From the IMG/VR virus record IMGVR_UViG_3300012953_000179, positions 1 through 27,171 of that record: DNA of 27,171 nt. The stretch is one strand, 5' to 3'. Below, piece after piece: positions 3,676-27,171 of this stretch (positions are counted from its first letter, which is position 1; each line of letters begins with the position of its first letter). Position numbers and translations under genes: made by a program. The DNA comes from a virus (lineage: Duplodnaviria; Caudoviricetes). Under the pieces are notes generated by a model. That model was not told the origin of the DNA, ran no database searches, and saw nothing but the letters and a program-made list of their open reading frames with translations.

Positions 3676-5394
3676 ATGACTAATACTACGCATGAACAAC
3701 ATGGCGGCAACGTCAGCAAAGTCAGGGGACAGAAGACTCGTGAATTGTTCCTTGAAGGACTCGCGGAGCATGGAACTATCTCTAAGGCGTGTGCTATCGC
3801 TGGTGTCACCCGATCCGCTTACGATAAGTGGAGACAACGCATACCTGATTTCGCTGAGAAAGCGGACTCCATCAGAGCTAAAGCGGTCGCTGACGGCGGT
3901 ATGGAGAAGTGGGACGGCACTTTTCAAAGTTTCAGAAGTCATTATTTCGGCCACATGTCCCCTTGGTTCCATATCAAAGCCATCGAAGCGTACGAAAACA
4001 CACCACCCGGAAACATTACCCTGATTCTCTGGCCTCCAGAACACGGCAAAACTACGTTGGCCGAGGACTACTTCTGCTACAAACTGGCGACAAATCCCGA
4101 ATTCAGGATCACCGTCGGATCTGAGGGCCAAGACATGGCGCGCAAAATTCTTGGGCGTATACGTAGCCGGATGGAACCTCATGGACCTTTCCCTAAATAT
4201 GTAGCTAAATATGGACCTTTCGTACCTCAAAATCAGAGCGGTCGTAAAACTGCTCAAGCGTGGGGTGCTGATTATTTTAACGTGTTTAAGAAGTCTCGTC
4301 ACGATGAGCGTGATTATTCTATGGTTTCTTTAGGTTGGCGATCGAAGATTGCTGGTACACGTACCGATCATCTACACATTGATGATATTCAATCTCGTGT
4401 TTCGTTGAATCTTACAGAACAGATGTTCGAGATTTTCCGTCAGGACTGGCTTACTCGTCCGGGTGAGAATGGTCGAACGAGTATTAATGGTACTCGTGTA
4501 GGTGAAGATGATTTCTATGAAAGGGTAATGAGGGAGATAGATCCTGACATTCTGAGTGTTATTAGATTCCCTGCCATTATACAAAATGAGAAGGATGAGC
4601 CTGAACCTTTGTGGCCTGAGATGTTCTCTATGGAAGCTCTTGACAGGATTCGTCGTAAAGTTGGGGAAGAGGCATGGTCACGTAACTATATGCAACAACC
4701 ATCTTCTTCAGCTGAAGCTACTTTTGATGAGGAATCTATAAAGAAATGTTTAAATCCATTACGTTCCGTGAATCATCACCCACCAAAGAATTGTAGTGTT
4801 TATATCGGTTTAGACCCTGCTCTTGGTTCTAACAACTGTGTGATTGCGGCTACTCCACATGAAGACAAATTGAAGATTCTTTTCGTTCGTGAAGATGTGG
4901 GGCTGACACGTAATGAACAGATACTACAAGTAGTTGAAGAAGCTGTATTGAGATGTGGACAAAATGGTTCATCTGTAACAGATGTTGTTATAGAAGCGAT
5001 GGTATTCCAAAAAGGGTTATCTCGTGATGAGAGATTAGTTGAAATGACGGAACGATATGGGTTCCGTGTAAGGGAACATTTAACAGGTGTAAACAAATAT
5101 GATGAAAATATTGGTGTTCCTTCTATGGCTTTATCGTTTATGCGACAAGAAATTGAGATCCCATATGCTGATGATCCTTCCACACGCCATCAGGCTGATG
5201 AATTGATTAGACAGCTTAAAGCATGGCGACCATTACAACGCGGTACTAGACTGAGACAGGATCAGGTAATGGCGCTCTGGTTCATATGGATATTATGGCG
5301 ACAAAGAAAGCAATCATATAGTGTTGACTCTTCACAATTCAGGTATAAAGGACTACCTTGGAAGTCAAGTGTGTCTACAAGTAAGGTTTATTAA
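3676..5394 (+). CDS. terL: Terminase large subunit with N-terminal helix-turn-helix domain
   Basis: Walker A PPEHGKTT, Walker B LHIDD, coupling motif GTR, PLWPE, YMQQP, RNase H-like IGLDPA and C-terminal DQVMALWF. RBS GAGGGG precedes the start. Confidence 0.92.
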   Translation: MTNTTHEQHGGNVSKVRGQKTRELFLEGLAEHGTISKACAIAGVTRSAYDKWRQRIPDFAEKADSIRAKAVADGGMEKWDGTFQSFRSHYFGHMSPWFHIKAIEAYENTPPGNITLILWPPEHGKTTLAEDYFCYKLATNPEFRITVGSEGQDMARKILGRIRSRMEPHGPFPKYVAKYGPFVPQNQSGRKTAQAWGADYFNVFKKSRHDERDYSMVSLGWRSKIAGTRTDHLHIDDIQSRVSLNLTEQMFEIFRQDWLTRPGENGRTSINGTRVGEDDFYERVMREIDPDILSVIRFPAIIQNEKDEPEPLWPEMFSMEALDRIRRKVGEEAWSRNYMQQPSSSAEATFDEESIKKCLNPLRSVNHHPPKNCSVYIGLDPALGSNNCVIAATPHEDKLKILFVREDVGLTRNEQILQVVEEAVLRCGQNGSSVTDVVIEAMVFQKGLSRDERLVEMTERYGFRVREHLTGVNKYDENIGVPSMALSFMRQEIEIPYADDPSTRHQADELIRQLKAWRPLQRGTRLRQDQVMALWFIWILWRQRKQSYSVDSSQFRYKGLPWKSSVSTSKVY

Positions 5395-7211
5395 TGTATA
5401 CATTTGATGAAATTGTATCAATAATACGACAACGACAAGACGCACAAAGCCCTTTATTGGATCGAATGCTCGAAATAAAGGAGCGTTACAACGGTGAATA
5501 TGTCATACCGTTGCCATCAATGGATGAAGAACCTGTTCTACCTCCTCTTACCCCTGCTTTAATATCAGAAAACATTGATGCTGTAGCTCAAAGAGCCGCA
5601 TCAGTGATGCCTTTTATCGGATGCCCAGCTGTAGATCAGTCTAAAGAACGTGGTATCAGGTCAAGAGAGTATGCTGATATTCGCAGAAGAGCGTTGTCTG
5701 CGACATGGTATTCATCTAAATATAAGATTAAAATGCGCCGCGCTTATAGGCATTTAGCTGGGTATGCCACATCTTGTTTAGTGGTAACACCAGATTTTAA
5801 TAAGGGGCTTCCACGTATTGATATACGTGATCCTTTGGGTGTATATCCAGAACCGAAAGCATACGAAGACGTAGATCCACCACGGAATTGTGGGTTTATT
5901 TACGGCAAATCAGGCGACTGGTTAAGGGCGCATTACCCTGCTTCCAGAGAAGAAAATGGTGGACCTGTAAATTCTGATGAAAAATCACGACAAGAACTAT
6001 GGGATGTTTGCGAATGGGTAGATGACGAACATATAGTCATCGGCATCATGGGGCCAAGATACCATCACTTCTTTGAGAACAATACATATTCTAGACACAG
6101 CACACAGATTGAATTGTCACGCGCACCGAACAAAGCTGGTATGCCTTGTGTGATAACTCCGGGTCGAGTCAGCTTAGATAAGATTGCTTCCTCAATATCA
6201 AATGTTGTAGGAATCGTGGATCTTATGTCAAAAATGATGGCGTTGGAAATAATGGCACAGGAAAAAGCTATCTTCCCTGATAGGTATATAATAGGACGAT
6301 CGGGTCAGGTGCCTATGATCGTCGGAGGTGAATGGAAAGACGGTCGTGAAGGAGAAGTAAACATACTTCTCGACGCAGAAGAAATAGGCGAATTAAGATC
6401 AAGCCCTGATCCGAGTACAAATATTGCCATCGACAGATTGGAAAGAAATGCTCGTGTATCGACAGGAACCGTCCCACAAATTGGTGGGGAAACTTACGGA
6501 GCGTTACGTACAGGTAGAGGAATCGACTCGCTTATGGGCGCGGCATTGGATCCGCGTATCCAAGAAATGCAAGAGATTATGGAGGCTCATCTTCCTCATC
6601 TAAACGAATGCCTATTCGCTTCTTATAAAGGTTATTTCGGTAGTAAAAAATTCTCTATGTTCACTGGTTACGCTGGGGATTTGGGTCAAGTAGAATTTAC
6701 TCCAAACGAACATTTTGAGACATATGACAATGTGGTTTCGTACTCAGTCCCCGGCGCAGATGTTCAAGGAACGACAATTCAATTAGGCCAGTTGCTTGGC
6801 ATGAAGGGTATTAGTCTAAGAACTTTCCGTACTAAGCATCCGTTTATTGAAGATGCTGAAGCTGAAGGTCGCAGGGTAGATGAAGAACTTTTGGAAGAAG
6901 CAGTAATGCAGGCGATACAACAGCAAGCATTATCGGGACAGTTGCCAGTTGTTTATGTTTCTAAAATAGAGAAGCACCGTAAGAAAGGGCTTGATATTTT
7001 TGAAGCGATCGAACAAGCTGACCGTGAAATTCGTGAGGAGCAAGCGGCGGTAGCCCCTCCACCTGAAGAGGGTCAAATGATGGCACCTGAAGAAGCGATG
7101 GGGATGGCGGCTGGCGCACAAGGATTAGGACAAGCCCCTGCTGAACAACCCACAGAAGGATTTTCTCCGGGCGCAGTACAAGAGTTAGCTAGTGCATTAA
7201 GGACTAGCTAA
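5394..7211 (+). CDS. Portal (head-tail connector) protein
   Basis: 605 aa immediately after terL (TAATG overlap). IRDPLGVYP motif, helical body, TGRG motif and an acidic Pro/Ala/Glu-rich C-terminal tail as in podovirus-like portals. Confidence 0.8.
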   Translation: MYTFDEIVSIIRQRQDAQSPLLDRMLEIKERYNGEYVIPLPSMDEEPVLPPLTPALISENIDAVAQRAASVMPFIGCPAVDQSKERGIRSREYADIRRRALSATWYSSKYKIKMRRAYRHLAGYATSCLVVTPDFNKGLPRIDIRDPLGVYPEPKAYEDVDPPRNCGFIYGKSGDWLRAHYPASREENGGPVNSDEKSRQELWDVCEWVDDEHIVIGIMGPRYHHFFENNTYSRHSTQIELSRAPNKAGMPCVITPGRVSLDKIASSISNVVGIVDLMSKMMALEIMAQEKAIFPDRYIIGRSGQVPMIVGGEWKDGREGEVNILLDAEEIGELRSSPDPSTNIAIDRLERNARVSTGTVPQIGGETYGALRTGRGIDSLMGAALDPRIQEMQEIMEAHLPHLNECLFASYKGYFGSKKFSMFTGYAGDLGQVEFTPNEHFETYDNVVSYSVPGADVQGTTIQLGQLLGMKGISLRTFRTKHPFIEDAEAEGRRVDEELLEEAVMQAIQQQALSGQLPVVYVSKIEKHRKKGLDIFEAIEQADREIREEQAAVAPPPEEGQMMAPEEAMGMAAGAQGLGQAPAEQPTEGFSPGAVQELASALRTS

Positions 7212-7594
7212 TGGTCAGAGCTAAAAAGAATCTTCCTGTTAAAACTACACCGATGGCGGCTGGCGCTGATTATGGTGAAGTTCAAACTAATGAAGGACTG
7301 ATTAAAGACATAGGTATGCCGGATATGTCTGATCCGACTGTTGGTGCTACAGGTGCGGTTCCTGAACAAAACCTTCCTGCGAATCCTGTGGAAGCGGCAT
7401 CGGGTTTCCCTAATACTATTACGCCATTAACAGCTCAAGGTACGAACATGCGTTCTCGTCCTCAACAATTTATTATTAGCAACAAGACGAGAGCCGCGGC
7501 TTTTTTAAGTGATTTAGCGGAACATGTTCCTGACCCTGCTGTCAGAATGGCGGCAGATGATTTGAAAGACCATTTACGTAATGGTCAATTCTAG
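7211..7594 (+). CDS. Small Pro-rich post-portal protein, probable virion/ejection component
   Basis: Coupled to the portal (TAATG). G.DYGE motif and low-complexity Pro/Ala content. Function inferred from position only. Confidence 0.6.
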   Translation: MVRAKKNLPVKTTPMAAGADYGEVQTNEGLIKDIGMPDMSDPTVGATGAVPEQNLPANPVEAASGFPNTITPLTAQGTNMRSRPQQFIISNKTRAAAFLSDLAEHVPDPAVRMAADDLKDHLRNGQF

Positions 7595-10500
7595 ATTCAA
7601 CCCAGTTACATCAAGTAACCGAAACTGGGGGCGAGAAGACAATCTCAACTCCATTATGTATGGAGAGAATTACGCTACGCTTATGCGAAGTGGTGCCGGT
7701 AGATTCATTCAAGGACCGGAACTTTCTACTCGGCTAGTTGATTTAGCTAGTAGCAACATATCTATAGACAAACAGCTTGAGACTCTTTACACGGCTAACG
7801 ATCAAATCTATTTAAGGCAACAGATAGAGAATTTTAAAAAAGTTCCTAAAACATTCCAGCCTTCTGAATTTGCTAATCTCCCACCAACAACTCAACAAAT
7901 GATGTTAAGTGCTGGTTACGAGTTGCCTGATAAAAAACAAGATGAACGCCCTTGGTGGCAACGAGCTTTAACTTGGGACATTCCTTTTAATCCTTTTGAT
8001 AACTGGTTGGATGACAGAAGTTGGGGTACTCCTCTTGCTTTACCAAAAGCGGCGTTAGCTCCAATCAAAGCTGTTGGCGCTGGTTTAGGTTTTGTAGGTT
8101 CATCTCTTTGGGAGGGGGTTGAAAAGGGTTGGAGAGCTGGGCAACGCTTCACTAGAAGTTTAATGTACTTAGAAGAACTTGGTGCTAACTCTATGTTTAA
8201 ACCTCCTAAATGGAGAGAAGCATGGAACAACACACGTTTAGAAAATGATTCCTACAGTAAAGACACTATTGCTGACGCTATAGAATTAGTGGGACCTGAT
8301 AGAACAAAGCTATTAAGAATGTATGTAGCTCAAGGGAATGATGCGGTCGCTGAATATTTCGCAGATGAAATGGAAGCGCGTGGCAGACCAATAGAAGACG
8401 CAATCAATTTGCATTCGGATTGGTATGAATCTTTAGCAAGAGAAGACAGTCAAGAAGCATTAGCTATTTTACAATCAAACAAATTAGATACGTTCAATGG
8501 TTCTATAAGAATGTTCAACAAGTATCTGCCTTTCTTACCTGACGCGGCACCTGACAGTGTGTACGGCAAAATGATAGGTACGACTGGGACAATAGCTACA
8601 GGGATTGTATTTGATCCGACAACATGGCTACTTGGACCAGCGTTTTCTGCGGCGAAACTAACCAAGATGGGTATACGTAATGCTGATGCTTGGAAGACAA
8701 TAGATTTAGCTGAACAATATTCGAGAATAGTTCGTGAGCATGGAGGCAAACTACCTCGATCAGAAATGGCGAGACTTAGCAACACGCACGATGAATTGAT
8801 GAGTGAATGGTCAAGAAGCCATAGAGGGTTACGTGCAGTTGGGTTATTGAATCCTTTAGTGAGAATGAACGCTAATGCTAGGAACAGGTTTATTGGAAAA
8901 GTCAATGAAACTTTCGACAAACTTAATAGAACAGAAGATGCTCGGATAGCTATTCGCGATGAGATGGGTGTAGATGCGACCTACGCGAAAGTAGAAGAAG
9001 AATTACTTAAGAGGCACCCTGATCTAGCAAGTGTTGATGCAGATGCTTTGCTTGAAGAGTTCACTAGATTAATTCCGGGAATGGAACAAGGGCTTCAACA
9101 CATGATTGAATACAACTTGAAAGCCCGATTGGATGATGGTTGGGTAACCGCTACTGGACAAAGAGTAAAACCACAAGACTTGTCAACATATGATGGATTT
9201 TGGAATTTTCTTAAAGACGATTTAGGTGCTAGAGCATTATCATCAAAGATGGGTGGAGTTGATCCTGACGCAATATTTATTCCTCGTTTAACTTTCAGAG
9301 GCGCATCTTGGCAACGAGTTAAAACTCTAATGGATCAGACTGTTGATTTCGGTAAGAACAGTCATAACGATATAACTGCTGGTATAGCTAGATTATCTGG
9401 CGAGTATTTAGAAAAACAAGATTACACCGCAGTCGCATTATTAATGGAAGATATTGATAATGGGGTTCTCACGTTATCAAAAGAAATTAGTCACGCTGAT
9501 ATGGGTGCATTACTTAAAATTCGTGACGTAGATCAACGAGCTTCAATGGCTAATATGATGATGGGTTTATCAAAAGCGGACGTAACTCTAATTACTGGCC
9601 GTCATCAAAAGATGTTAGATGAAGGCGAAATCTTTAAAAGACTTATGGATGAGGGTGAAGTTAGCGACCTGTTGAATTATTACAAAGGTGATGGTCGCAT
9701 AATTGATGAGACAGGAAAGGTTAGATACCTTCAAAAAGGTGACGTTCTTCCTAAAGGCTGGTGGAGAGCCGCAAGAAATTATTATACAGATAACATACCG
9801 CCTCAAGGAAGTTTCAATGCGGAAGTAGGATTAGCTGAAAAGTTAAAAGTATTTAGTTTAGCGACAGCCACATCAATGGCCTATTATCCTGCGAAGTTTG
9901 CAAGATCTTTAATCACATATGTGCCTAAAGCCGGTCACTTGGATCGTGTTGATGCGCTTACTTCTATTTCAGAATTTAAAGCTCTTGTAAAAATGGGTTC
10001 TTTAGCCCACATGCCAAGAGCGCAAATCAACAGTTATATACGTAAATTTATTACAGGTAACGAAGCTGAACGTTGGATTGTATCAAGCGAATTTCTTTTA
10101 GATTTTGTTGGACGATCAGGTATCCTGCTACACGCAGGTGACGACGTAACACAATTCGTTGATAGGTTCATACGTCACGGAAGCCACCATTACGATGTTC
10201 TAAAACAAGACGGTGTAAGCATATTCGGCATGAGCGCACCTAGAGGTATTTTTGTCAGCGACATGAACTTAGCGCAAATGTCACGAATGAACGTAATCCC
10301 TAACTATAGAGAGTTAGCGGCTGTAGCTAAATACATAAACATGTACAAGAGATTTGGTTGGATGACACCTATTCCTTGGATAGATAAATGGATGGGAAGA
10401 ATTTGGCGACCAGCAGTTCTATTACGGTTAGGTTACGTTGCGCGTAACGGTGGAGAAGAGCTGTTCTCATGGATGCTTCGTGAAGGTCCGGGAAGTTACG

Positions 10501-13500
10501 TTAATAATAAATTGGCTAGAACAGCGGCAGGCAAGGTCATTGTTTGGGACGAGTATGGTCGCAAGATGGTCAAGAACATTGACGAATTATCTGACATGGA
10601 TCACCGTCTTCTGATAGGTAAACCATTCGGTAGGCTTATACGTTCTGTGAATGAGATTGCTGGTGTAGGCGACTACGCTATTACGCGTAAAGCATTGTCT
10701 AATGTTCTTAAAGGGCCAGAGGGTGGTATCGCTTGGGGCTTTAAAGATGACGCTACTAGATTAGCGGCGTTTGAATTTGAACGAGCAAAATTAATACGTG
10801 AGATGAACACTAAAACAAAGATGGCTCGGTTTATACAACAAAGAGCGCATGGCTTTAGCAACAATGTCAGTAGATGGATAGGTGATACTTCAAGGAATCT
10901 TGGTATACCAACTAAACAAGATTTAACTGAGAGATGGTTAAGAAGAAGAGATCCTGATGCTGAGGCACGAATAGGTAATATACAACACGCCTTAAGCAAT
11001 CCAACGATGATGGATGCTGTAGCTAAAGACATATTAAACACACATGACACGTATCTTAATTTCAGTAAGAATTCTTTAGATACTGCTATGCGTGATGCAG
11101 GTTTCGGGCAGACACTTTCACAGTTAGTGAAACTTCCTATTGATTATTCAACAACCCAGTTGAGAGTAGTTCAGAATAATCCCGGACAGTCCCCTGATTA
11201 CACTTTGGCTTTAGCGCAATCTGCGGAGATACATGCGGAAGATGCTGGTGCTGTAGCGGCATTGCACGAATTAAATCATTTTGTGAATCTTGAAGACGAA
11301 GCTCGATTAGCTCCAATCATCAATGAGATGATCTCACAATTACCTACTCAAGGACAAAGAGAATTTCATATAGGCAGAGCGGAGATACCCGCACGGCATG
11401 TGCCTGCTTCTAAGGGTGGGATTATTCCAGCAGAGGGAGCTGAAATAACAGAACAGGCGTTGCAGGCGGCTAAAGAAGCCGAGCCTATAACTGTGATGAT
11501 TACTGGGCAAAGGTTTTGGAAAAAGGATAAAGCAACAGGCAAAATGGTTCGTGCTGTGTCTGAACAGGACGAAGCACGAATCAAAAAAGCGATAGATGAT
11601 TCTTTAGCCCAGTTGCCTCCGGGATCTACTGTTCGTGTGGGTGGCGCTAGAGGCGTGGATGAGTACGCAGAACAGGTGGCTAACAGGTTAGGTTTGAACG
11701 TAGAGCAATATTACATTCCAGATGAAGGAGCTGAATCTTGGAAAACCGCTTCAGCTAAAGCTGGTCCTATTAGAAATAAGAGAATGCTTGAAGGCCGTCC
11801 GATTGAGGGAGGGGAGAGAGGACTAGCTGATAAGACTTGGGCGTTTCATAGTGGTAAAGGGTTTGAAACTCAAGAAGCTGACAAAACTTTAGATATTGGT
11901 AAACGTAGTTTTATATTAAGTAAAATTAAGGGTCTTGGTAGAAATGCGGAAAGTCCTTTAAAAGTTGCGTATCTTCCATATGCCGCTTTCAGAAAAATGG
12001 TGACAGAAAAGGGAGGGCCTCCTGAAGCATTATTGAATCAAGTAATCGCAATTAAATCAGGCGATCAAACTGTTTTGGTTCGTATAACAGGCGCTGAAAC
12101 TCGTCAGGGTGAAGAAATCGCTCAACTGCTTAAAAATGACAACATGCTTATAAGTCCTAAATTCATGCAGGAAATGAAAAAATCGAAGAACTGGGTTAAG
12201 AAAGGTTCTGTACTAGATGACAACATTAAAGGTTGGGATCCTAATTTTCCAGATGGTGGACCAAGGGCAGTAGAGTTACGATTCGAGTACATCGGTCCAC
12301 AAACTAACCCAGCTGAAGTGCAAGCTGGATTAAAATGGGAGGGTGGAACTGCTGATGCTATGAATCAGTCATTGTCAGCAGGGGTGAAAATAGACACGCA
12401 AGCTAACTTTGGTAAACCGGAAATCGCTGGCGCTGAAGAACTTGCAGAAGTATCTGCTTACAACAAAGCTAAAGGTGACGCTTCACGAAGAGCATCTAGA
12501 GATTACGATGAGGTTACAGAAAATGGTGTGACTCGTTTAACTGTTTACGATAGTACAACAGCCACTAAAGCAGAAGATATACCTGCTGTTGCAGGAATTG
12601 AACCTAAAACTCCGATGCAGTCATTACTTTGGTTTGTGGAAGCGTTACCTCCAAGAGTGAGGCGTGTATTAGAAAACAATCTTGATGATGCTATTAAAGG
12701 TAATGCTTCTTGGGAAGAAATAGTAAATAGTGTTCTTTCATATATCCCTTATAAGATTCGTCATTTATGGCACGATCTTTTAATGCCACCTGTGGATGGT
12801 GTTATCAGATCGCCCCGCTATCTTGAAGTGTTTAGAAAAGAAACAGTAGAAGCGTTGGGTATTAAAGAGAGTGATTTAGGAGCGGCGCTTCCTTCACGTA
12901 CGGTAAGAACTTTAAGTAGGCATGTAAAAGATTTCAGTGGCGGTTACGTTTTTGAACCCGGACAGGCTCAATCATTCCCAATGAATTTTGATTACGGTCA
13001 AAGAGGTGCTTTACCTAAAGCGGCTCATGTAACATCGGATGATACTTTTACAGCGATTTTAGATGGGCAACGCACAGCGACTACACGCAAAGACGCTCAA
13101 GTGGAAGGTGTGAAAGTTGGCGACTATTTAAAGTTCACTAAAACAAAACATGGAGTGCCGTCAGAACCTATTTATGTTCGTGTCACAGAAGTTCGTAAAA
13201 CAGATACTTTAACTCCTGAAGAATGGGCGTTGCCTGAAGGTTACAGCCCTAAAGCCGCCGCCGAAAATTGGAAAACAACTGGTGAAGATCCATATAGTCA
13301 GATAGAACAGGCAGAAGCAAGCGCCAGTGCAGGTAGAGCTGTCGATCAAACCATTCCAGCGAAAGTATATGGGTACAGAGGTGGACCTTATGGCGAAGGA
13401 CACACACAGATACTTTTTGAAATGGTTAACCCTGAAACTGGGATAGCTCTTAAAGCTCAACCACAGAAATCAGCTAACCACCGTCAGTTAGAAGCAGGTG

Positions 13501-16500
13501 GAGCGAACATTGATTCTTACCCAGCGGCTTTAAGAGGCGAGTTTACTATAGATGAACTTCTAGACGAGTTATCAGATTTTTGGTGGGACGCTCATTATAA
13601 ACAGAACAAGGCAACAGGTCCAAAAATAATTGTTGTTGGTGAAGTCGGAGAATCATATGGTTACACAGGTAAAAGATTCAATCTTATTGATGACGGTAAA
13701 TCAAAACCCGGAGCTAAGTTAAGCGACGAAAGACCAATGGCGGGTGATTGGATAGAATCTGATACTCAAGCTGGTTGGCCTCCTGCGATCGCAAAAATAC
13801 TTAAAAGGGTTGAAGAAGAAACAGGTTACAAATTCGATATAGCTATTATCCAAAGGTACGATTCGGGTTCAGTTGACCTTGGTTGGCATTTCGACAAACT
13901 TCCCGATCAGACTCCTGAAGAGATTATTGCGTCGGTTAATTTTGGTGAAACAAGAAACTTCCAATTCAGACCAAGATGGCGAGAAGATGGTAAAGAATAC
14001 GGTTATAGAACTGATAGAAGTGAACATCATATAGATATGCCGTTAGAGGACGGTGACATTTTCTTGATGCGTGAAGGCACTCAACAAAATTGGGAGCATC
14101 GAGTTACTCGCGGTTTGTCGCATGAAAGGCTTGGACCGCGTATCAATATTACTTTTAGGCGTAGTAATCCTGCGATGATTTCGCAGGCACGTTTAGCGAG
14201 GGTAGACGATGCAGAAAAATTAGTTACTGAAGCGCCTCTTGTAACAGAAGTTCATTACAAAAAAGGTTTAAACACTGTCTTAAGCAACTTCCACCAAGAA
14301 GAATTTGTTTTTAGAGGTGTAGCATTTTCAACAGCAGAAGGCGCGTATCAAGCTTGGAAAACAGGAGAGTATGTACCCGGATTTGAAAACCTAACAGGTG
14401 CGGCGGCTAAATCTAAAGGACGCAAATTAGCGCCTGATACTGATACGAATACAGAATTAATGAGAGAGATTCTTCAATCTAAATTCGATCAGTCTCCTAC
14501 ATTCAGAGAAGAACTATTAGCATCAGGGCAGATTACTCATCCTGTTAAAGACACATTTTGGGCAGGTAAATTCCCTGAGTTGCTTGAAGAACTTAAGAGC
14601 AGTGTGCAAGGTTCTACGGATCATCCGTTGATTTCTTTCCCATCTCCTATCAGGGGTGTAACAGTAGAAGCTTTTTCTAATCCGCAAGGCAATTTAGCGT
14701 CTCTTTCACATTCTGACGGCTCGTTCAGTATTGATCTTAGGGCTATAGAAGAAGCATATGAGAACCGTAGCTTTACAGGAACAGCTTTTGATTCTTTGAA
14801 GCAATTCGGTTGGTTTAATGCTGATGAGTTTGTGACAATGCTTGCGACAAGAAACATAGTTCCTTCTCAGCTTAGTGATGCTGAAAGGTTTGTTGAGTTA
14901 GTAAACCTCTATGCAGACACTCGTGGTATAGATGCTGTAATTGATTTGGATACACCATTAACTGACCAATTTGCTTTAATGGCTTATGTTTGGGAAACAC
15001 AAATGTCACGCTTAAGATACGGTTACGCTACAAACCCCGCGGATAATGTTGAAGCGGTAGCACGAGCCAACCAAGCTAACATGCTTACCTTCTCTGAGCT
15101 TGGTATCCCTATACCTAATATGACTGATGGTATTCCACGCGGAAATCAAAGCACACAAATAGCACATTGGTTGTTTGGGAATCCGGGAAGATACAAAAAC
15201 ATAAGCAAATTGCATTATTCAGAAGAGGCTTTGAGAGATGCGATGCACAAAGCATACGTTGGGGCGCATACTACACCGGAAGGTCAGCAAGCGCATACAA
15301 GTGCAGTTCGCTCAAATATTTCTACTGATCCAGCGGCTCCTTACATATCTCATGCGATACCAGATTCAGTAGTAAGAGGTTTTGTACCTATGGTGCCAAC
15401 CTCTGTGGCAGAAGATTTGACATCTTTAATGATAGCTGACCCTGAATTAGTAGGGGCTACTAATAAATTCCATCAAATATTTCAAGAGACACTTACACGC
15501 AAGTTAGATGAAATAGGTGGTACTGGTCCTAAGAGACAAAGCACAGGAGTGGTTGCTACTACACAATTATTAAATCCAGCTGTGAGTATAAAAGGCGCTC
15601 GTAATAGCGGTATTACTTATATGAAATTAGCTGAACAATGGGCTGATGCAGGGCATTTCCCATTAGTTACAGCTTCTACAGATCCAATGGTTGCTAAAGC
15701 TATAGCTGAAAGTGTTGTAGAAACAATCGCAGAAATGAAAGGTGTCCCTGTTGAACAGATAGGACTCCCAAGGATAGGAACGAAAGATCTTCATGGTGAT
15801 GAGTTCTTTAACCAACCCGGATATTACAGAAGAGAAAGAGAAAGAAATGCTCAAACTCCTGACTGGGATCTTGAACGTGGTGGTTTAACTTCTACAGAAA
15901 GCAACGCTTCGTTTGGTGACATAGGCACGATGAACCATGTTTACGGTTTTGCTAGTGATGGGCGTGGTGCTGTTACTTCTGCACAAATGGGAGAAAGCGG
16001 GTTAAGAGGGGAAACAGTATTTGGTATAGGCGCACATCGTTTAAGTCCATTTGAGGGTCTTACACCTGTGCCAATGTCAACTAATGGCGAATATCAAGTA
16101 AGCAAAAAGATAATAGCTAGACACAAAGACGGATTACGACCTAATGCGATTATAGATCCTAATAACTCAACAGAGCTTGCATGGTATAAACCTGATGAAT
16201 GGGATCTTGAAGAACAAATATTTAGTGGTCCAACAATTCATAATGCAATTTCGGAAACTGGACAACTTGTTATAGATAACCTTTTACATACTTACACAAA
16301 CCAAAGTAGAAGGGGAGGCACTACTACTCCACTTAAAAGTTTTCATCCGTGGGTTAATGAAGTAATTAATGACGCTCCTGTTGATGCAGGTCGTATGCAA
16401 GCGAATGCTGATAGTGACGGATGGTGGAATAGCGCTCCGCAAGAATTAGTAGGTTTCGCTCCTGCTGAAGCAGAAGACCAAAGCGCATTCTATTTGAAAC

Positions 16501-18710
16501 TCTTTAGAGGATTCTTTGATGGGGTAGTCCACCCAATGTTAGGTGCGATGGTCAGGGAACCATTGTTCCATGAGTATCTAACAACAGGCATGAAACAAAC
16601 AGAAGGTTTCAGGCAAGCATACTTCCATGCTCCTGACAGATTCAAAACACTTAACACTCGCTTAGGTAAAACATCTAGCGTTAATGATAATAAACAGTTG
16701 GTTATTAACGGTTGGGAAGATTTTGTAAAGCAAAACGCTTTAAGCCGAGTACCAGATGCGGACGATCCGGTTACTGGCCTTTTCTACGCTATAGAAAACA
16801 GAAACAAAAAAGGTGTCGAAAAGCATTTAGATGTGATATTAAACGGCACAGAAGAAACTGCACCTCTAGCATTATCACCGCAAATAACAGAGTTCTTTGA
16901 AGAATTGTATGTGATGGCGAGTTCAAATACTAAAGTCGATGCAAAACTATTAGATGATTTCTTTTCTTACAACACAGGTTTAGAGAAGCAACTTGAACTA
17001 TGGAGAGATGCTGGTCTTCAAAGAGCTATGACTCTAACAAGTTCATTCATTGATGACCATAGAATCAGATCGAACTTCCAAACAATGGTTAATACAGCTG
17101 TACCATTCTGGTTTGCTGAAGACACGTTCCTTAGAAGATTCGCACGAGGGTTAGCACATAACCCATTAATGTTACGAAATCTGAATCTTTTCACAGGAGC
17201 GTTACGTGATATGGGTATCGTTCAAAAAGACCAACACGGAAATGACATTCTTGTAATTCCGGGATCAGGTGCCACAGTAGGTTTCGTAATGGAACTAGCA
17301 GACAGAACGCCTATTGTGAACAGGATCTTTGGAGGAAATTTAGGTAGTGTAGCTAAACCAAATCTAGCTTCAAGCCTTCATGTAATTCCGGGTTATGATT
17401 TAGACAGAATGGGTCAGATGGGCTTTGGTCCTTTACTTTCAATCCCTATAAATCTAGTCGCTAATATTGATTCGACTATCAGAAAGACTTTTGAGAACAA
17501 CCTTTCAGGTGGTAGGTTCACCCCTGAGAATCGTGGAGAAGTAGTTTGGAGTGCAGTAGTTCCACAAGTTATTGCACGACCTGTTTCTGCAATAATGGAT
17601 GGATTTGGTTTTGAATCTAAAGGTAAAATCAAAGCTCAAATGGAAGTCATCAAGTATCTAGGGTTACATGGTCAGCTTCCAACGCCTGAAGAGATAGCGT
17701 CTCAACCTAACCCTGAAGTTTTCATGGAAAGATTCATGGCCAAAGTAGCGCAAATGGGTAGACAGTATTCGCTTCTACAAACAATGACATGGTGGGCTGG
17801 CCCCGCTACAGCACGGTTACATGATCTTATGAACAATGAATCGTTTGAAAGAAACCAAGATTTATGGGAGCTAGTCGGCAATGGTGTTCCTTGGGAGGAA
17901 GCCTACGGAATGTGGATGGAGAAGATCATCGCTGAAGAAGGCGAGTTTGATCCGTTTAAACACACACCATTCATGGTAGGTACACATAAAAAAGGAACGG
18001 TAGCTGTTTTGGAAACGACAGAACAAGCTAACGATTGGATCGTTGACAATAATCCGTTTATTAACAACTTCCCTAATACTGCGGCTTTCTTTATGGATCG
18101 CGGTTTTGATTCTGACGACGACGATTACGAAGCAGACGCTAAAGCAAGACTGGTAGCGCATGGTCTTTTAGAATTGCAGACACCTGTAGAGTATTTGAAT
18201 GAGGTGTATTACAAGTCTGCGATGCCTCAATATCAGAAAATGAAAACAGATTATCTTGAAAAGAAGTACGCATTATTAGCTAATAAACAGGACACTTCGG
18301 GGCTTGATAGGCAATGGGATGCAGATAATTTACAATTTATGACCAGCAACCCAGTGTTTGCTAAAGAGTATCAAGGTGGTAGGTCAAGGGATAAACGTGA
18401 AGCATCTATGAAAGAGATAGAATTGCTTGTTAATAACCCTGACAAAGTACCTGAAGGGCCATATAAAGCAGATTTGCTTGCAGTTATGGGACTAGCTACT
18501 CAAATGGAAAAGGACTTATTTAAGCTAAAAGGGCAAACAACTGGTGAAGCTAGTGAATTAAGGAACAATATTAAAGTAATGGTTTATTTGACCCTCCGTG
18601 ACTTTGTTCGTGGTAAGCCGTGGCTAAATGAAATATATTATAGTTTAGTGCTTCCATTGTTGGGAGAGAATTTTGTTGCAAAATTTGAGAATGGATTGAT
18701 AAAAGTATGA
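7581..18710 (+). CDS. Giant (3709 aa) polyvalent internal virion/ejection protein with SLOG, ASCH, AlkB, NADAR and degenerate zincin domains
   Basis: Scaffold motifs of large phage ejection/polyvalent proteins: hydrophobic DPTTWLLG segment, WRPAVLLRLGYVARN at 10404-10448, PFWFAEDTFLRR..NP and GFGPLLSIP in an LPD38-like C-terminal region. Enzymatic domains lie at about 11484-15090. Confidence 0.8.
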   Translation: MVNSRFNPVTSSNRNWGREDNLNSIMYGENYATLMRSGAGRFIQGPELSTRLVDLASSNISIDKQLETLYTANDQIYLRQQIENFKKVPKTFQPSEFANLPPTTQQMMLSAGYELPDKKQDERPWWQRALTWDIPFNPFDNWLDDRSWGTPLALPKAALAPIKAVGAGLGFVGSSLWEGVEKGWRAGQRFTRSLMYLEELGANSMFKPPKWREAWNNTRLENDSYSKDTIADAIELVGPDRTKLLRMYVAQGNDAVAEYFADEMEARGRPIEDAINLHSDWYESLAREDSQEALAILQSNKLDTFNGSIRMFNKYLPFLPDAAPDSVYGKMIGTTGTIATGIVFDPTTWLLGPAFSAAKLTKMGIRNADAWKTIDLAEQYSRIVREHGGKLPRSEMARLSNTHDELMSEWSRSHRGLRAVGLLNPLVRMNANARNRFIGKVNETFDKLNRTEDARIAIRDEMGVDATYAKVEEELLKRHPDLASVDADALLEEFTRLIPGMEQGLQHMIEYNLKARLDDGWVTATGQRVKPQDLSTYDGFWNFLKDDLGARALSSKMGGVDPDAIFIPRLTFRGASWQRVKTLMDQTVDFGKNSHNDITAGIARLSGEYLEKQDYTAVALLMEDIDNGVLTLSKEISHADMGALLKIRDVDQRASMANMMMGLSKADVTLITGRHQKMLDEGEIFKRLMDEGEVSDLLNYYKGDGRIIDETGKVRYLQKGDVLPKGWWRAARNYYTDNIPPQGSFNAEVGLAEKLKVFSLATATSMAYYPAKFARSLITYVPKAGHLDRVDALTSISEFKALVKMGSLAHMPRAQINSYIRKFITGNEAERWIVSSEFLLDFVGRSGILLHAGDDVTQFVDRFIRHGSHHYDVLKQDGVSIFGMSAPRGIFVSDMNLAQMSRMNVIPNYRELAAVAKYINMYKRFGWMTPIPWIDKWMGRIWRPAVLLRLGYVARNGGEELFSWMLREGPGSYVNNKLARTAAGKVIVWDEYGRKMVKNIDELSDMDHRLLIGKPFGRLIRSVNEIAGVGDYAITRKALSNVLKGPEGGIAWGFKDDATRLAAFEFERAKLIREMNTKTKMARFIQQRAHGFSNNVSRWIGDTSRNLGIPTKQDLTERWLRRRDPDAEARIGNIQHALSNPTMMDAVAKDILNTHDTYLNFSKNSLDTAMRDAGFGQTLSQLVKLPIDYSTTQLRVVQNNPGQSPDYTLALAQSAEIHAEDAGAVAALHELNHFVNLEDEARLAPIINEMISQLPTQGQREFHIGRAEIPARHVPASKGGIIPAEGAEITEQALQAAKEAEPITVMITGQRFWKKDKATGKMVRAVSEQDEARIKKAIDDSLAQLPPGSTVRVGGARGVDEYAEQVANRLGLNVEQYYIPDEGAESWKTASAKAGPIRNKRMLEGRPIEGGERGLADKTWAFHSGKGFETQEADKTLDIGKRSFILSKIKGLGRNAESPLKVAYLPYAAFRKMVTEKGGPPEALLNQVIAIKSGDQTVLVRITGAETRQGEEIAQLLKNDNMLISPKFMQEMKKSKNWVKKGSVLDDNIKGWDPNFPDGGPRAVELRFEYIGPQTNPAEVQAGLKWEGGTADAMNQSLSAGVKIDTQANFGKPEIAGAEELAEVSAYNKAKGDASRRASRDYDEVTENGVTRLTVYDSTTATKAEDIPAVAGIEPKTPMQSLLWFVEALPPRVRRVLENNLDDAIKGNASWEEIVNSVLSYIPYKIRHLWHDLLMPPVDGVIRSPRYLEVFRKETVEALGIKESDLGAALPSRTVRTLSRHVKDFSGGYVFEPGQAQSFPMNFDYGQRGALPKAAHVTSDDTFTAILDGQRTATTRKDAQVEGVKVGDYLKFTKTKHGVPSEPIYVRVTEVRKTDTLTPEEWALPEGYSPKAAAENWKTTGEDPYSQIEQAEASASAGRAVDQTIPAKVYGYRGGPYGEGHTQILFEMVNPETGIALKAQPQKSANHRQLEAGGANIDSYPAALRGEFTIDELLDELSDFWWDAHYKQNKATGPKIIVVGEVGESYGYTGKRFNLIDDGKSKPGAKLSDERPMAGDWIESDTQAGWPPAIAKILKRVEEETGYKFDIAIIQRYDSGSVDLGWHFDKLPDQTPEEIIASVNFGETRNFQFRPRWREDGKEYGYRTDRSEHHIDMPLEDGDIFLMREGTQQNWEHRVTRGLSHERLGPRINITFRRSNPAMISQARLARVDDAEKLVTEAPLVTEVHYKKGLNTVLSNFHQEEFVFRGVAFSTAEGAYQAWKTGEYVPGFENLTGAAAKSKGRKLAPDTDTNTELMREILQSKFDQSPTFREELLASGQITHPVKDTFWAGKFPELLEELKSSVQGSTDHPLISFPSPIRGVTVEAFSNPQGNLASLSHSDGSFSIDLRAIEEAYENRSFTGTAFDSLKQFGWFNADEFVTMLATRNIVPSQLSDAERFVELVNLYADTRGIDAVIDLDTPLTDQFALMAYVWETQMSRLRYGYATNPADNVEAVARANQANMLTFSELGIPIPNMTDGIPRGNQSTQIAHWLFGNPGRYKNISKLHYSEEALRDAMHKAYVGAHTTPEGQQAHTSAVRSNISTDPAAPYISHAIPDSVVRGFVPMVPTSVAEDLTSLMIADPELVGATNKFHQIFQETLTRKLDEIGGTGPKRQSTGVVATTQLLNPAVSIKGARNSGITYMKLAEQWADAGHFPLVTASTDPMVAKAIAESVVETIAEMKGVPVEQIGLPRIGTKDLHGDEFFNQPGYYRRERERNAQTPDWDLERGGLTSTESNASFGDIGTMNHVYGFASDGRGAVTSAQMGESGLRGETVFGIGAHRLSPFEGLTPVPMSTNGEYQVSKKIIARHKDGLRPNAIIDPNNSTELAWYKPDEWDLEEQIFSGPTIHNAISETGQLVIDNLLHTYTNQSRRGGTTTPLKSFHPWVNEVINDAPVDAGRMQANADSDGWWNSAPQELVGFAPAEAEDQSAFYLKLFRGFFDGVVHPMLGAMVREPLFHEYLTTGMKQTEGFRQAYFHAPDRFKTLNTRLGKTSSVNDNKQLVINGWEDFVKQNALSRVPDADDPVTGLFYAIENRNKKGVEKHLDVILNGTEETAPLALSPQITEFFEELYVMASSNTKVDAKLLDDFFSYNTGLEKQLELWRDAGLQRAMTLTSSFIDDHRIRSNFQTMVNTAVPFWFAEDTFLRRFARGLAHNPLMLRNLNLFTGALRDMGIVQKDQHGNDILVIPGSGATVGFVMELADRTPIVNRIFGGNLGSVAKPNLASSLHVIPGYDLDRMGQMGFGPLLSIPINLVANIDSTIRKTFENNLSGGRFTPENRGEVVWSAVVPQVIARPVSAIMDGFGFESKGKIKAQMEVIKYLGLHGQLPTPEEIASQPNPEVFMERFMAKVAQMGRQYSLLQTMTWWAGPATARLHDLMNNESFERNQDLWELVGNGVPWEEAYGMWMEKIIAEEGEFDPFKHTPFMVGTHKKGTVAVLETTEQANDWIVDNNPFINNFPNTAAFFMDRGFDSDDDDYEADAKARLVAHGLLELQTPVEYLNEVYYKSAMPQYQKMKTDYLEKKYALLANKQDTSGLDRQWDADNLQFMTSNPVFAKEYQGGRSRDKREASMKEIELLVNNPDKVPEGPYKADLLAVMGLATQMEKDLFKLKGQTTGEASELRNNIKVMVYLTLRDFVRGKPWLNEIYYSLVLPLLGENFVAKFENGLIKV
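11484..12395 (+). other. YspA/DUF2493-like SLOG domain (split by an insert) within giant protein
   Basis: VMITGQR, VRVGGARGVDEYAEQVA..LG, W..AGPIRNKRML, WAF, then after a ~160-aa insert GGTADAMNQSLSAGVKID. Confidence 0.8.
12975..13430 (+). other. ASCH (PUA-like) domain within giant protein
   Basis: TFTAILDGQRTATTR, VKVGDYLKF, IYVRVTEV, LTPEEWALPEGY, QILFE. Confidence 0.85.
13497..14162 (+). other. AlkB-family (ALKBH2/3-like) dioxygenase domain within giant protein
   Basis: YGYTG, WPP..KRVEEETG.KF, GWHFD (HxD at 13887-13895), IASVNFGETRNFQF, LEDGDIFLM..GTQQNWEH, PRINITFRR. Confidence 0.92.
14241..14600 (+). other. NADAR (YbiA-like) domain within giant protein
   Basis: LSNF, F..RGVAFSTAEGAYQAWK, AKSKGR, LMREILQSKFDQSP.FREELLASG, DTFWAG, LLEELK. 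Confidence 0.88.
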
Positions 18711-21238
18711 ACGAGTGGATTGAAGAAGTACAGATGATTCTTCAGGCTATTACCGGCGATGTCATGGATTTCTCTGATATGTCTGAAGAAGAGACTCTTG
18801 AATACATAGAGAATCTCGATCCTGCTTTACTTGAAGCAGTACACAATCAGCTGGGTGATCCTGAAATAGATGAAATGTCAGATGCTCGCCTTATGGCTGA
18901 GATGGCTTTTATGTTCGCACCAATAGGTAAAGCAAAGTGGTTATTTAAAGGGGCGAAAGGGCTTATTGGTAAACTCGCTCCTAAAGTAGCTAAAGGTGAA
19001 AAAATTTTACCAAGAAAGGTTTTATACAACACTTCAATGGGTGGGTTAAAATCTAGCGACCCAAAGAATGTTTCACATTTAGCAGGTAATATACCACGAG
19101 GTCGAACTACTGCCGGTGCTGGACGAACAGCAAGTCTTCCACAGCAAACAGGAGGGCTTAGACCGACAGGTCCAGTAAATGCAGTTCCGAAATGGAATGC
19201 TGGTACTGGTATGAGGGACAGTTACATGTCTAAATACGGTGCGCCTTTAGGTGCAAAGATGGAAGCGTTTAACACCACTTCTGGTAAGTACGTCAAGGAA
19301 CTTATGGCTGGAACTGGAATGGTTGGCGCTGGTTATTTAGAGTACATGAACAGACGAACTCCCGGATTACCCGGAAGTGATGTGATGAGAGATGACGATG
19401 AATCTGGTGGCTCTGATTCGCCTACTTATGGAATGGGAGGTGGTATAGGGGATGATGGTTCTCTGACATACGGTACGTCTGAAAGCCAAGAGATTATTAA
19501 AAAACTAGCTTGGGAAGGTCACACTGTAAATTCTGCTAACGACAAGTTTATGCGTGTCGTATTAGAACAACCTCATGTAATGGGTGCAACGCCACAAGAT
19601 TTCAATACGTTGGAACAGTATCTAGCTAACGATCAGGACAACTTGAATGTTATAAACGTAACAGCTGGTGAGGGTCGGACTAGATTAGGTGATTTTATGC
19701 GAGAGGAGTGGCATAACATTCCCGGATTGCATGAACAGTTACTTGATGAAGCGCACCGAAGATTTGACGATTTTATTCATAGTTCAGATATGGATATAGA
19801 GGTTTTAGCTGACATATCAATGTTGGGTAATGATGAAGAAGCAATGTGGGACGATATTTTAAGTGGTTACCCAGTGCAATCTATGGATTATTTGGGTATG
19901 GAACCAGCAGGTCCACATTCGCAAACCCAACAACAAAACATTATTGAATACATGGAGAAAGAATTCGGCAAGGAGATAACAAGCAAGGTTCTTTCAGGTG
20001 CTAGAGATCAAGTGATTGAAAATTATATTACGGAACACACAAGAGCGAACCCATATATGATTACGAACAATGAAGGCGGTATGATTACTGGCTTTGATGA
20101 AGCGTATGACACTTCCAGTTTTGGGCAAGTAACTTCGCTTGAGGATCTTTTCTCAGGGGAGTATGGGGTTAAAGTCGGACCAGTACACGCGGCTTCTTAT
20201 CTTAAAGATTTGTTCCATCGGACTAACGAAGGTGGTTCAACTGGTTCTTCTGTAATAGCGTCATTCCAGCAAACGATGTATGCGATGGGTTATATGGATG
20301 ACACTATAGGTCAGTTACCTGCTCCTGATATGTGGGGTCATGTTGACGATCAGACGATAGAAGCATTCAAAGCAGTGCAATGGGATATTGTTCAAAATGT
20401 TGATGAAGCCCGACGCTTGGGTATAGAACCTGATGTTAAAAGCCTTTGGAAAGAGATGCAGAACGAAGGAGTTATCCAAAGGATGGCTACATCTGACATG
20501 GACCCAGAAGGACAGTTCAGAGTAGATGCGTCTAACAGGTTCGCTAATCATGCTAAAGCAAAATTTGCTAAGAGACTCGTTCCTATGATGAACATGCCTG
20601 AAGAAGAAATAAACAAGAACATAGATCAAGTGTTGAGTGATATGACCGCCGAGGAAAGAAACATGGCTTGGGGTATGGGCGGTAATCCTGATGAGGTTGC
20701 GATGGCTGGAGAGATTCTAAAATCTTTTTATAACGATGATTCTGATTGGGGTAGCAATATACGGTTCGGACATAACAATTCAGATTTTATGAACTATGCC
20801 AATAAGGTCGGTGCTTTAACAGATAAAGAAAGACAGCAACACGCGGCTGACCTTATGGAAGGTCGTTCTGGTTCAATCGGGAAAGATGTGGCTATATCAA
20901 ATTTCTTAATGATGCTTGATGGTGATATTACAAACTCTACAAGGACTGAGATTCGATCAGGGTTGGCTAGATACGCAAACACTATAGGTTTTGAACACTC
21001 AAGAAATAATGGGTTCACCGCTGATGACATTTTCCAGAGAGCAGATGCAGGCTTGTCAGCGGCGCGTTCAGCTGACACTACAGATTATGACGAGTTGATG
21101 ACAACCTTAGAAGGTAGATTGGATCTTCTGCAAGATTACAGCTCTCGCGGTATCAGTTCAGCTAACGCAGTTCTTTGGGGTAGTACGATGCCTAGAGTTA
21201 GTATGCCTGTGCGTGATAAGGGGGGCAAAGCATTATGA
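18707..21238 (+). CDS. Probable internal virion/ejection protein with peptidoglycan-binding domain
   Basis: ATGA-coupled to the giant gene. PG_binding_1-like segment GSSVIASFQQTMYAMGY...WGHVDDQTIEAFKAVQ at about 20243-20380. Confidence 0.65.
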   Translation: MNEWIEEVQMILQAITGDVMDFSDMSEEETLEYIENLDPALLEAVHNQLGDPEIDEMSDARLMAEMAFMFAPIGKAKWLFKGAKGLIGKLAPKVAKGEKILPRKVLYNTSMGGLKSSDPKNVSHLAGNIPRGRTTAGAGRTASLPQQTGGLRPTGPVNAVPKWNAGTGMRDSYMSKYGAPLGAKMEAFNTTSGKYVKELMAGTGMVGAGYLEYMNRRTPGLPGSDVMRDDDESGGSDSPTYGMGGGIGDDGSLTYGTSESQEIIKKLAWEGHTVNSANDKFMRVVLEQPHVMGATPQDFNTLEQYLANDQDNLNVINVTAGEGRTRLGDFMREEWHNIPGLHEQLLDEAHRRFDDFIHSSDMDIEVLADISMLGNDEEAMWDDILSGYPVQSMDYLGMEPAGPHSQTQQQNIIEYMEKEFGKEITSKVLSGARDQVIENYITEHTRANPYMITNNEGGMITGFDEAYDTSSFGQVTSLEDLFSGEYGVKVGPVHAASYLKDLFHRTNEGGSTGSSVIASFQQTMYAMGYMDDTIGQLPAPDMWGHVDDQTIEAFKAVQWDIVQNVDEARRLGIEPDVKSLWKEMQNEGVIQRMATSDMDPEGQFRVDASNRFANHAKAKFAKRLVPMMNMPEEEINKNIDQVLSDMTAEERNMAWGMGGNPDEVAMAGEILKSFYNDDSDWGSNIRFGHNNSDFMNYANKVGALTDKERQQHAADLMEGRSGSIGKDVAISNFLMMLDGDITNSTRTEIRSGLARYANTIGFEHSRNNGFTADDIFQRADAGLSAARSADTTDYDELMTTLEGRLDLLQDYSSRGISSANAVLWGSTMPRVSMPVRDKGGKAL

Positions 21239-26767: not shown

Positions 26768-27171
26768 ATGGCTATAGTTGGCTATGGAGGTAAAGTAACC
26801 TCATATGATCTTGCCGTTGGCGTTAAGATCAACATGGATGAACTCATTTACATGATTTCACCAACAGACTCTCCGTTTATCAACGGTATTGGAACTGATG
26901 GAAGGCAACTTCTTTCAAGCTCCAGCGTTGACCAACAAGAGTTCAAATGGATGGACGAAGAGCTATTGCTCCCTCGTTCAACCGTATCGGTACTTAACAG
27001 TACCTCTGGTGCAACACCTGTTAGCATCACCGTGGGTGCCACAGAATCTTACAAATTCCAAGTAGATGACCTCATCGTCTTGGGACAGGAAGCATCTGGT
27101 GGCGCTAATGAAAAGGCTGTAATGAGAATTACAGACCCAGATCATGGCACTGGTGTTATGCTAATTTCCGA
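26768..27171 (+). CDS. Major capsid protein, SU10/DUF5309-like (3' truncated by window; missing from ORF track)
   Basis: AAGGAG RBS at 26751-26756. Translation MAIVGYGGKVTSYDLAVGVKINMDELIYMISPTDSPFI...EFKWMDEELL matches the D.I..ISP..tPF...W..D.L N-arm/E-loop pattern. Confidence 0.8.
   Translation, partial: MAIVGYGGKVTSYDLAVGVKINMDELIYMISPTDSPFINGIGTDGRQLLSSSSVDQQEFKWMDEELLLPRSTVSVLNSTSGATPVSITVGATESYKFQVDDLIVLGQEASGGANEKAVMRITDPDHGTGVMLIS

Follow-up and report, generated by a model that had tools for sequence, protein, structure and literature searches.

Polyvalent proteins are giant multidomain phage proteins that are encoded in a virion-gene setting, combine disparate enzymes with a zincin-like domain and vary in architecture among orthologues, and their delivery into the cell along with the DNA has been predicted (PMC5512222). 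Their hallmarks are an MPTase with an HExxH motif, LPDs and ART domains. A second, related theme concerns viral SLOG, Macro and NADAR domains, for which packaging and early counter-defence have been proposed and a YpsA-like SLOG co-occurs with NADAR; the same source predicts head-packaged Macro/NADAR/Nudix proteins and a coupling of SLOG, Macro and NADAR directed against ADP-ribose signals, notes that the phage domains typically stand alone and that 0.3% of small phages have NADAR (PMC9503650). Sporadic phage AlkB proteins and SLOG-Macro-NADAR fusions in jumbo phages have also been reported (PMC7824862). Finally, the T7 gp14-16 type of ejection protein is large, mostly helical and encoded beside a lytic transglycosylase in short-tailed phages (PMC11680406, T7/T3).

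The protein analysed here, of 3709 aa, is encoded in a 27,171-base virus record that is 61% complete and that we call the window, meaning the whole stretch of DNA under analysis. Judged from its sequence, it would work like a polyvalent protein, with domains of disparate biochemistry in one polypeptide that is encoded among late virion genes. It differs in that its domains are inserted internally, at two fixed loops and with one domain nested within another, and in that its zincin is dead; delivery with the DNA would be inferred for it as well. Of the polyvalent hallmarks, the zincin is degenerate, LPD38 appears as an Atlas lead and an ART-PolyVal match lies below cut-off in one distant relative, L218. 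Whereas the SLOG and NADAR domains of PMC9503650 are typically separate proteins, those of this ~47-kb phage are built into a virion-block scaffold that also contains AlkB and ASCH. The resemblance to T7 gp14-16 is one of context, with no sequence match and no fold match to a low-confidence model of the C-terminal arm.

The general theme is thus already published, in the polyvalent proteins and in the SLOG/Macro/NADAR genes near virion genes. The main text of PMC5512222 contains no occurrence of NADAR, AlkB, SLOG or ASCH and that of PMC9503650 no match to '2OG', and we found no description of this fusion in a literature that included few subscription papers, although the supplementary architecture lists of both articles may contain it. 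The giant stands apart by its non-polymerase scaffold, by two fixed internal insertion sites, one with a nested domain, by exchange of domains among near-identical phages and by relocation of the modules to a second gene.

Genomic context and integrity of the giant gene

The genes of the window that bear on the argument are as follows.

3676..5394, + strand: terminase large subunit (phrog_38)
5394..7211, + strand: portal (phrog_104; matches are Streptomyces phage portals)
7581..18710, + strand: giant protein, 3709 aa, a ~2,530-aa conserved scaffold plus two inserts
18707..21238, + strand: 843-aa gene, conserved, in the same block as the giant
21235..22287, + strand: SLT lytic transglycosylase gene, directly after which a second carrier gene is inserted in relatives
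22268..23239, + strand: 323-aa gene, homologue of Immanuel3 gp11/gp12 over their C-halves (annotation there: minor tail peptidase/glycosylase)
23236..24549, + strand: 437-aa gene, homologue of Immanuel3 gp13
26768..27169, + strand: SU10-type major capsid protein, truncated at the window end

A single 127-aa gene separates the portal from the giant ORF, and the order 3' of the giant is the 843-aa gene, SLT, two conserved genes, ferredoxin, a probable scaffold, a zinc-ribbon gene and the SU10-type capsid. The first-pass annotation had set the ORF between the portal and a peptidoglycan (PG)-binding/transglycosylase block; the position is correct, with the 843-aa gene followed by SLT, but Pfam finds no PG-binding domain in the 843-aa gene. 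Portal matches among annotated phages come from Streptomyces phages in 28 of 30 records (22-24% identity; two are unannotated), and one of them, Abafar, is a podovirus by microscopy (PMC11536984). Immanuel3, of the Beephvirinae (cluster BF Streptomyces podoviruses), shares the order terminase, portal, small gene(s), giant, cell-wall enzymes, scaffold and capsid. Its downstream genes are homologous to those of the window, with profile matches of the 323-aa gene to gp11/gp12 (E 7e-26 and 2e-12) and of the 437-aa gene to gp13 (E 2e-39), whereas gp9, which stands in the giant's place, has 1,648 aa and can be aligned with the 3709-aa protein over one motif only (E 0.0035 among 11 proteins). A virion-module gene context of the podovirus type is supported by these comparisons.

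In a relative of ~99% identity, 46,964 bases long, the gene products include WhiB, with a score above cut-off, and a Gp3-like recombination factor. The WhiB supports an actinobacterial host, as had been assumed from the outset, and the phage is a marine one, likely with a host in Actinobacteria; two genome-contig matches are short MAG contigs and were left out of the host assignment. The non-structural arm of the ~99% relative G004 (L227:1-20000) encodes WhiB, SSB, DUF932, a PD-(D/E)XK nuclease, a Gp3-like factor, HNH and a metallophosphoesterase, and no DNA or RNA polymerase was found among the 13 proteins scanned from it.

Some smaller genes of the window deserve mention. The ferredoxin gene (Fer4_15, E 1e-15; 25464-25709) lies within the head module, 5' of the probable scaffold gene, and a Zn_ribbon_8 gene (26383-26751), shared with G002 and G004, lies between the scaffold and major capsid genes. 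Three tandem genes precede the terminase (327-2297); Pfam assigns two of them to the 2OG-Fe(II) oxygenases, and phrog_274 is matched by the first and the third. The window thus holds at least two 2OG-Fe(II) oxygenase genes besides the AlkB domain of the giant. In RNA runs, at most 0.06 of the words were present.

An ORF of this length might be a chimera, assembled without read support at its domain junctions. Yet the 3709-aa protein recurs in L142, its cassette unchanged, and the architecture recurs in L082, whose DNA is 92% identical. Contigs of four runs not marked as possible sources cover all 30 bins of the gene with zero joints. Single contigs bridge positions 7400-11838, 10978-12245, 12120-15960 and 12195-15385, which together take in every domain junction with overlaps, none of them covering the entire gene. 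A chimeric origin is, for practical purposes, ruled out by these two relatives and the junction-bridging contigs. GC3 is similar in inserts and arms (0.29-0.32). The distant L218 giant (L218:806-6051) is split into two frames at about 4580-4600; it has an ASCH domain at site 1, the weak ART-PolyVal match mentioned above and DUF7831 further on.

Two insertion sites in a conserved scaffold

The giant comprises the following parts, in aa numbering of the protein.

7581..11351, + strand: scaffold N-arm, aa 1-1257, 32-37% identical to cassette-free relatives
11352..12608, + strand: insertion site 1, aa ~1258-1676, with a stalk, a split SLOG and a nested domain
11481..12428, + strand: SLOG of the YAcAr/YpsA type, aa 1301-1424 and 1585-1616, split by the nested domain (Pfam YAcAr weak, E 1e-4)
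11853..12302, + strand: nested domain, aa 1425-1574, fast-evolving and beta-rich, possibly PUA/ASCH-like (weak)
12609..12791, + strand: scaffold helices between the two inserts, aa 1677-1737, with counterparts in the short linker of cassette-free relatives
12960..13427, + strand: ASCH domain, aa 1794-1949 (Pfam E 0.015, below cut-off; fold match YqfB)
13542..14162, + strand: AlkB-family 2OG-Fe(II) dioxygenase, ALKBH3/2-like, aa 1988-2194 (Pfam 2OG-FeII_Oxy_2, E 5e-24, above cut-off)
14228..14238, + strand: junction at which close relatives hold an extra DUF7831 of about 130 aa, missing in the window, L082 and L142
14244..14603, + strand: compact NADAR, aa 2222-2341 (Pfam below cut-off, E 2e-6; 6-row profile against YbiA 2b3w, E 2e-11)
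14610..15116, + strand: degenerate zincin-like domain, aa 2344-2512 (no Pfam hit; homologues carry HExxH)
15147..18710, + strand: scaffold C-arm, aa 2523-3709, mostly helical

Giants without a cassette, where complete, have about 2,530-2,800 aa. Their linker contains helices matching aa 1229-1257, 1677-1737 and 2523-2570 of the window's protein (by eye, partly by profile), and this pattern defines two insertion sites, the second of which spans aa ~1745-2522. The enzymes do lie mid-protein, as the first-pass annotation had it (aa ~1300-2500), but they do not form a single block: there are two sites, and one domain is nested.

The N-arm contains the most conserved motif of the family, the segment that aligns weakly with Immanuel3 gp9. 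An AF2 model of the C-arm (17 rows) was poor, with a pLDDT of 59.6 and a pTM of 0.37; Foldseek returned zero matches for it in the PDB at E <= 0.001 and three uncharacterised phage proteins in BFVD (TM 0.13-0.15). One Foldseek row for an ejectosome chain, ranked 42nd with E 1.3, was discounted. The C-arm had zero tblastn matches in annotated phages. LPD38, the Atlas lead for the giant, accounts for 10% of one cluster, and Pfam gives no hit to any LPD family in the protein.

Domains of the inserts

The motifs first read by eye from the sequence as SLOG, ASCH, AlkB and NADAR were borne out by model or profile comparison. For the 'ASCH-like' and zincin-like motifs the result was mixed: both domains are there, the former with a weak ASCH/PUA identity and the latter with its HExxH lost.

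For site 1 and the ASCH region, an AF2 model of aa 1229-1955 (14 rows, pLDDT 61) was compared by VIA-align with 48,161 chains. SLOG proteins occupy the top six rows (Z 10.1-11.2), led by YpsA (Z 11.2, rmsd 3.2, 132 aligned); the ThsA SLOG reaches Z 9.6. Since the match extends over about aa 1301-1616, across the nested insert, the SLOG closes around a nested 150-aa domain. That domain yields a single fold row, residues 4-132 of ATP sulfurylase (Z 5.8, rmsd 3.3, 89 aligned), a domain that we take to be PUA-like. It has no Pfam hit, its best Atlas score (0.78) was uninformative and hhalign gives it a probability of 8.9 against ASCH rows.

The modelled ASCH domain matches YqfB with Z 9.8 (rmsd 3.0) over 99 of 102 residues, and other ASCH chains with Z 6.5-9.3; a word-index search found no homologue of the module. 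In ASCH ac4C amidohydrolases a Lys of the octapeptide is essential (bioRxiv 10.64898/2026.02.27.708502), and in the window and most relatives the corresponding position holds Arg. This substitution makes binding likelier than hydrolysis, and the domain is likely a binder.

AlkB is a classic repair enzyme for alkylation damage. The AlkB domain is closest in solved structure to ALKBH3 (E 3e-19), followed by ALKBH2 (E 5e-15), and its ligands for iron and 2OG are intact (H2103-x-D2105, H2173, R2187 and R2193; HxD...H, R-x5-R) and retained across carriers that are about 50% identical.

The NADAR keeps E2253, K2260, the GR arginine, H2320, D2324 and W2327, and has lost the equivalents of W89 and R93, two phosphate-binding residues. 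Its Glu and Lys are likewise retained across carriers about 50% identical; both have been shown to be essential in the E. coli C7 NADAR (PMC11543638) and in T4 AdfN (PMC11257639). Phage-type NADARs have a catalytic His position in the last strand (PMC11125620). H2320 is invariant in 6/6 rows and probably corresponds to that position, while HMMER places the preceding Thr2319 opposite the catalytic Glu125. AdfN (T4 gp30.3) shares with the window's domain the NADAR fold, the essential Glu and Lys and probably the last-strand His (PMC11257639; PMC11125620), but it is stand-alone, whereas the domain here is shortened, embedded and without the two phosphate-binding residues.

In the zincin alignment, four of six rows read W-E-H-E-x-x-H, compared with T-Q-M-S-R in the window and its close kin L082; the sole HExxH of the giant, at aa 1229, is in the scaffold and unconserved. 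By sequence, the zincin of the window's giant is degenerate and appears dead, with the motif intact in relatives. DUF7831, the module found in relatives next to NADAR, has what we take to be a macrodomain-like look from its glycine motif. Sequence-profile searches of the DUF7831, ASCH and SLOG regions against the PDB gave no meaningful match.

Exchange of modules among related phages

The portal, the N-arm, the C-arm and an arm profile served as queries to gather related loci, and 139 ORFs with both cassette flanks were reduced to 60 at 97% identity. Modules occur in 14 of the 60 giants, in 10 arrangements, and the other 46 contain none of the nine modules whose profiles were built from these same sequences. 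The scaffold is conserved throughout, so that the cassette is variable between conserved flanks, as anticipated. DUF7831, cpYpsA and HhH are added to the repertoire by the loaded giants. A word-index search with the cassette itself found only the window and two close kin.

Whole domains differ even between very similar phages. L148, L147 and L099 have N-arms 98% identical in DNA, yet the first carries zincin-ASCH-NADAR, the second zincin and another insert, and the third zincin and a NADAR split by DUF7831. The window and L086 are one DUF7831 domain apart at 97-99% identity. In L099 (one assembly, incomplete) the DUF7831 sits in frame within NADAR (L099:13144-13503), and the near-identical L148 has a whole NADAR.

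In comparisons with L082, L083 and L084, dN/dS is 0.14-0.67 for the modules, highest in the nested domain (0.67), against 0.11-0.24 for the arms; all modules are below 1, and by this sequence measure they are under purifying selection. Values of dS form a mosaic: relative to L084 they are 0.42-0.53 in the arms and 0.11-0.33 in the cassette, and relative to L086 0.03-0.04 in the arms and 0.12-0.15 in SLOG, nested domain and ASCH. Because the mosaic runs in both directions, it points to recombination of the cassette independently of the arms. Loaded giants fall into several groups of a quick tree with long-branch warnings, a tree from which the order of gain and loss is not inferable.

Insertions are found at further places. 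In the L191 giant a third site, within the C-arm, holds a zincin, and L190 (9690-10196) has a zincin with intact HExxH alone at this site in an otherwise empty giant. Acidic site-2 inserts matching no profile or Pfam family occur in the giants of L112 (aa ~2170-2420 and 2630-2720) and L147 (aa ~2050-2155). Unassigned stretches of 1-4 kb interrupt the virion blocks of L093 (11947-16046), L127 (11064-13859), L234 (7315-9885) and L206 (9074-10231), all with an empty giant and no second carrier; these stretches may hold further payload genes.

A second carrier gene

In phages with an empty giant, the same modules are found in an optional gene between the SLT gene and the 323-aa gene. This second carrier has 1,200-2,000 aa and is exemplified by four loci.

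L239:2444-6898, - strand
L231:4552-8250
L183:18070-21198
L187:11426-14548

It begins with a conserved N-terminal domain of ~230 aa that belongs to no Pfam family, followed by a variable train of modules: cpYpsA-ASCH-AlkB-NADAR in L185 and L187; an ART-like stretch (by eye), NADAR, zincin and cpYpsA in G001; and DUF7831 as well in a 1,965-aa version. The second carrier of G002 and the giant of L078 have one unnamed module in common. The downstream block is visible in 47 redundant loci: 9 of them carry a loaded giant alone, 27 the second carrier (many of these copies incomplete) and 11 neither. Carrier-2 phages form one clade in the quick tree, so the mutual exclusivity of the two carriers counts as one event and not as independent evidence. 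Across 254 loci and the window, most of which extend about 10 kb from the virion block, so that stand-alone copies farther off could escape, the sole module-bearing ORF matching neither carrier profile is the continuation frame of the L218 giant. The comparison shows that the kit has moved between two genes of the virion block.

Proposed function and alternative explanations

We lean, by a modest degree, towards the giant being an ejection-type virion protein whose two loops hold an exchangeable payload, predicted to bind or strip marks that the host puts on nucleic acids and nucleotides, early in infection. The protein is likely packaged in the virion and would enter the cell together with the DNA; its modules would then work without new synthesis. 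After entry, the domains would be presented in the cytoplasm as beads that, with the zincin dead, likely stay tethered to the scaffold of the window's giant and are not released by self-cleavage. AlkB would carry out oxidative demethylation of lesions or marks of the 1mA/3mC type, NADAR would remove ADP-ribose from guanine or act on soluble ADP-ribose products, and SLOG would bind or hydrolyse an NAD-derived signal, with ASCH and the nested domain as probable binders of nucleic acid.

The first-pass annotation had proposed that marks on the incoming genome are reversed before any phage gene is expressed, and this is the weakest step. Lesions of the 1mA/3mC type mainly arise in single strands. 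DarT1, too, modifies single-stranded DNA (PMC11257639), which makes action of NADAR on incoming double-stranded DNA before gene expression the least likely timing. From both properties, the substrates would plausibly be early transcripts, opened or replicating DNA, or soluble signals, and such single-stranded or soluble targets would be likelier than the intact incoming duplex. Counted against the ejected-payload reading are the poor C-arm model, the single motif shared with gp9, the 46 of 60 giants without modules, the 11 of 47 loci in which a loaded giant and the second carrier are both missing, and the catalytic decay seen in the zincin motif, the ASCH Lys and the two phosphate-binding residues of NADAR, along with the HMMER placement of Thr2319.

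A delivered kit could also serve general damage repair or salvage, for example of extracellular alkylation or RNA repair by-products, and not a response to immunity. This fits AlkB as the best-preserved enzyme and a classic of alkylation repair, the other 2OG-Fe(II) oxygenase genes of the window and the place of NADARs in riboflavin-intermediate and RNA-repair chemistry (PMC9503650). We regard it as rather unlikely, as the rapid gain, loss and reshuffling of modules among near-identical phages better fits an arms race and the recurring partners (SLOG, cpYpsA, NADAR, DUF7831, ART-like) centre on NAD and ADP-ribose. The idea that the inserts are near-neutral, decaying passengers in tolerant loops is improbable: the lost zincin motif and ASCH Lys, dN/dS values above those of the arms and the many empty relatives speak for it, but every module has dN/dS <1, the AlkB ligands and the NADAR Glu and Lys persist in carriers about 50% identical, and 3.6 kb extra in a ~47-kb genome would presumably be a cost.

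Two further readings concern the scaffold. The giant might be made late and not be ejected, its modules working in replication and packaging, stages at which DarT-type toxins have access to single-stranded DNA; T4 AdfN, after all, restores phage replication on DarTG1, whose DarT1 targets single-stranded DNA (PMC11257639), and the C-arm model yields no ejection-protein fold. Fusion of the modules into two different virion-block genes in place of stand-alone genes, the annotation of unrelated carriers as internal virion or structural proteins and, by analogy, the virion association of a 4,400-aa giant in the actinobacterial podovirus Burro (PMC7302621) make a late role quite unlikely in our estimate. 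A virion RNA polymerase of the N4 or crAss type with accessory domains would have a similar size, but Pfam and PHROGs give no polymerase family hit, the giant has no DFDxD-type motif and the low-confidence model of the C-arm, the one arm that was folded, gives no polymerase, which leaves this identity very improbable.

If the giant proves to be an ejection-type carrier whose modules are delivered and active, then such proteins would be more than DNA conduits: they would also bring in counter-defence enzymes that can be exchanged, and would do so even in phages of ~47 kb, for which NADAR is reported to be rare. The natural series of 98-99% identical phages with and without single domains, in two carrier genes, offers small, cleanly bounded domains that can be tested individually on known defence systems, and DUF7831, the Arg-type ASCH and the embedded AlkB are pointers to host modifications still undescribed.

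Related modules in unrelated giant proteins

A search with aa 1795-2345 against 1.84 billion representatives listed 150 matches. Among the matches listed, 38 are strong NADAR matches, 27 of them in proteins of >=700 aa; of the 106 AlkB matches, 4 reach this length. Likewise among those listed, 33 proteins have >=700 aa, 8 with this scaffold or the second carrier and 25 others. Pfam scans of 19 of these 25 unrelated giants and PHROGs scans of 16 left most of them without a carrier annotation; one each matches LPD38, an internal virion protein, a virion structural protein and a Dda-like helicase.

A broader reading, possible but doubtful, is that a shared pool of compact de-modifying domains recombines into any virion-ejected protein, giving each particle a kit against host systems that are unknown. 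The pool would comprise a NADAR lineage specific to giant proteins, AlkB, ASCH, SLOGs and DUF7831. We suggest only tentatively that it would be drawn on by uncultured marine actinophages and unrelated phages alike, with domains inserting even into one another, and it is a speculative step to have the host systems methylate, acylate or ADP-ribosylate invading nucleic acid. Were such a pool real, a virion-borne AlkB would hint at an undescribed alkylation-based defence.

Five of the unrelated giants (P0015, P0023, P0037, P0049 and P0071) carry the same compact NADAR or Arg-type ASCH, and their partners are matches to a Dda-like helicase, a DFDxD motif, LPD38 or virion proteins.
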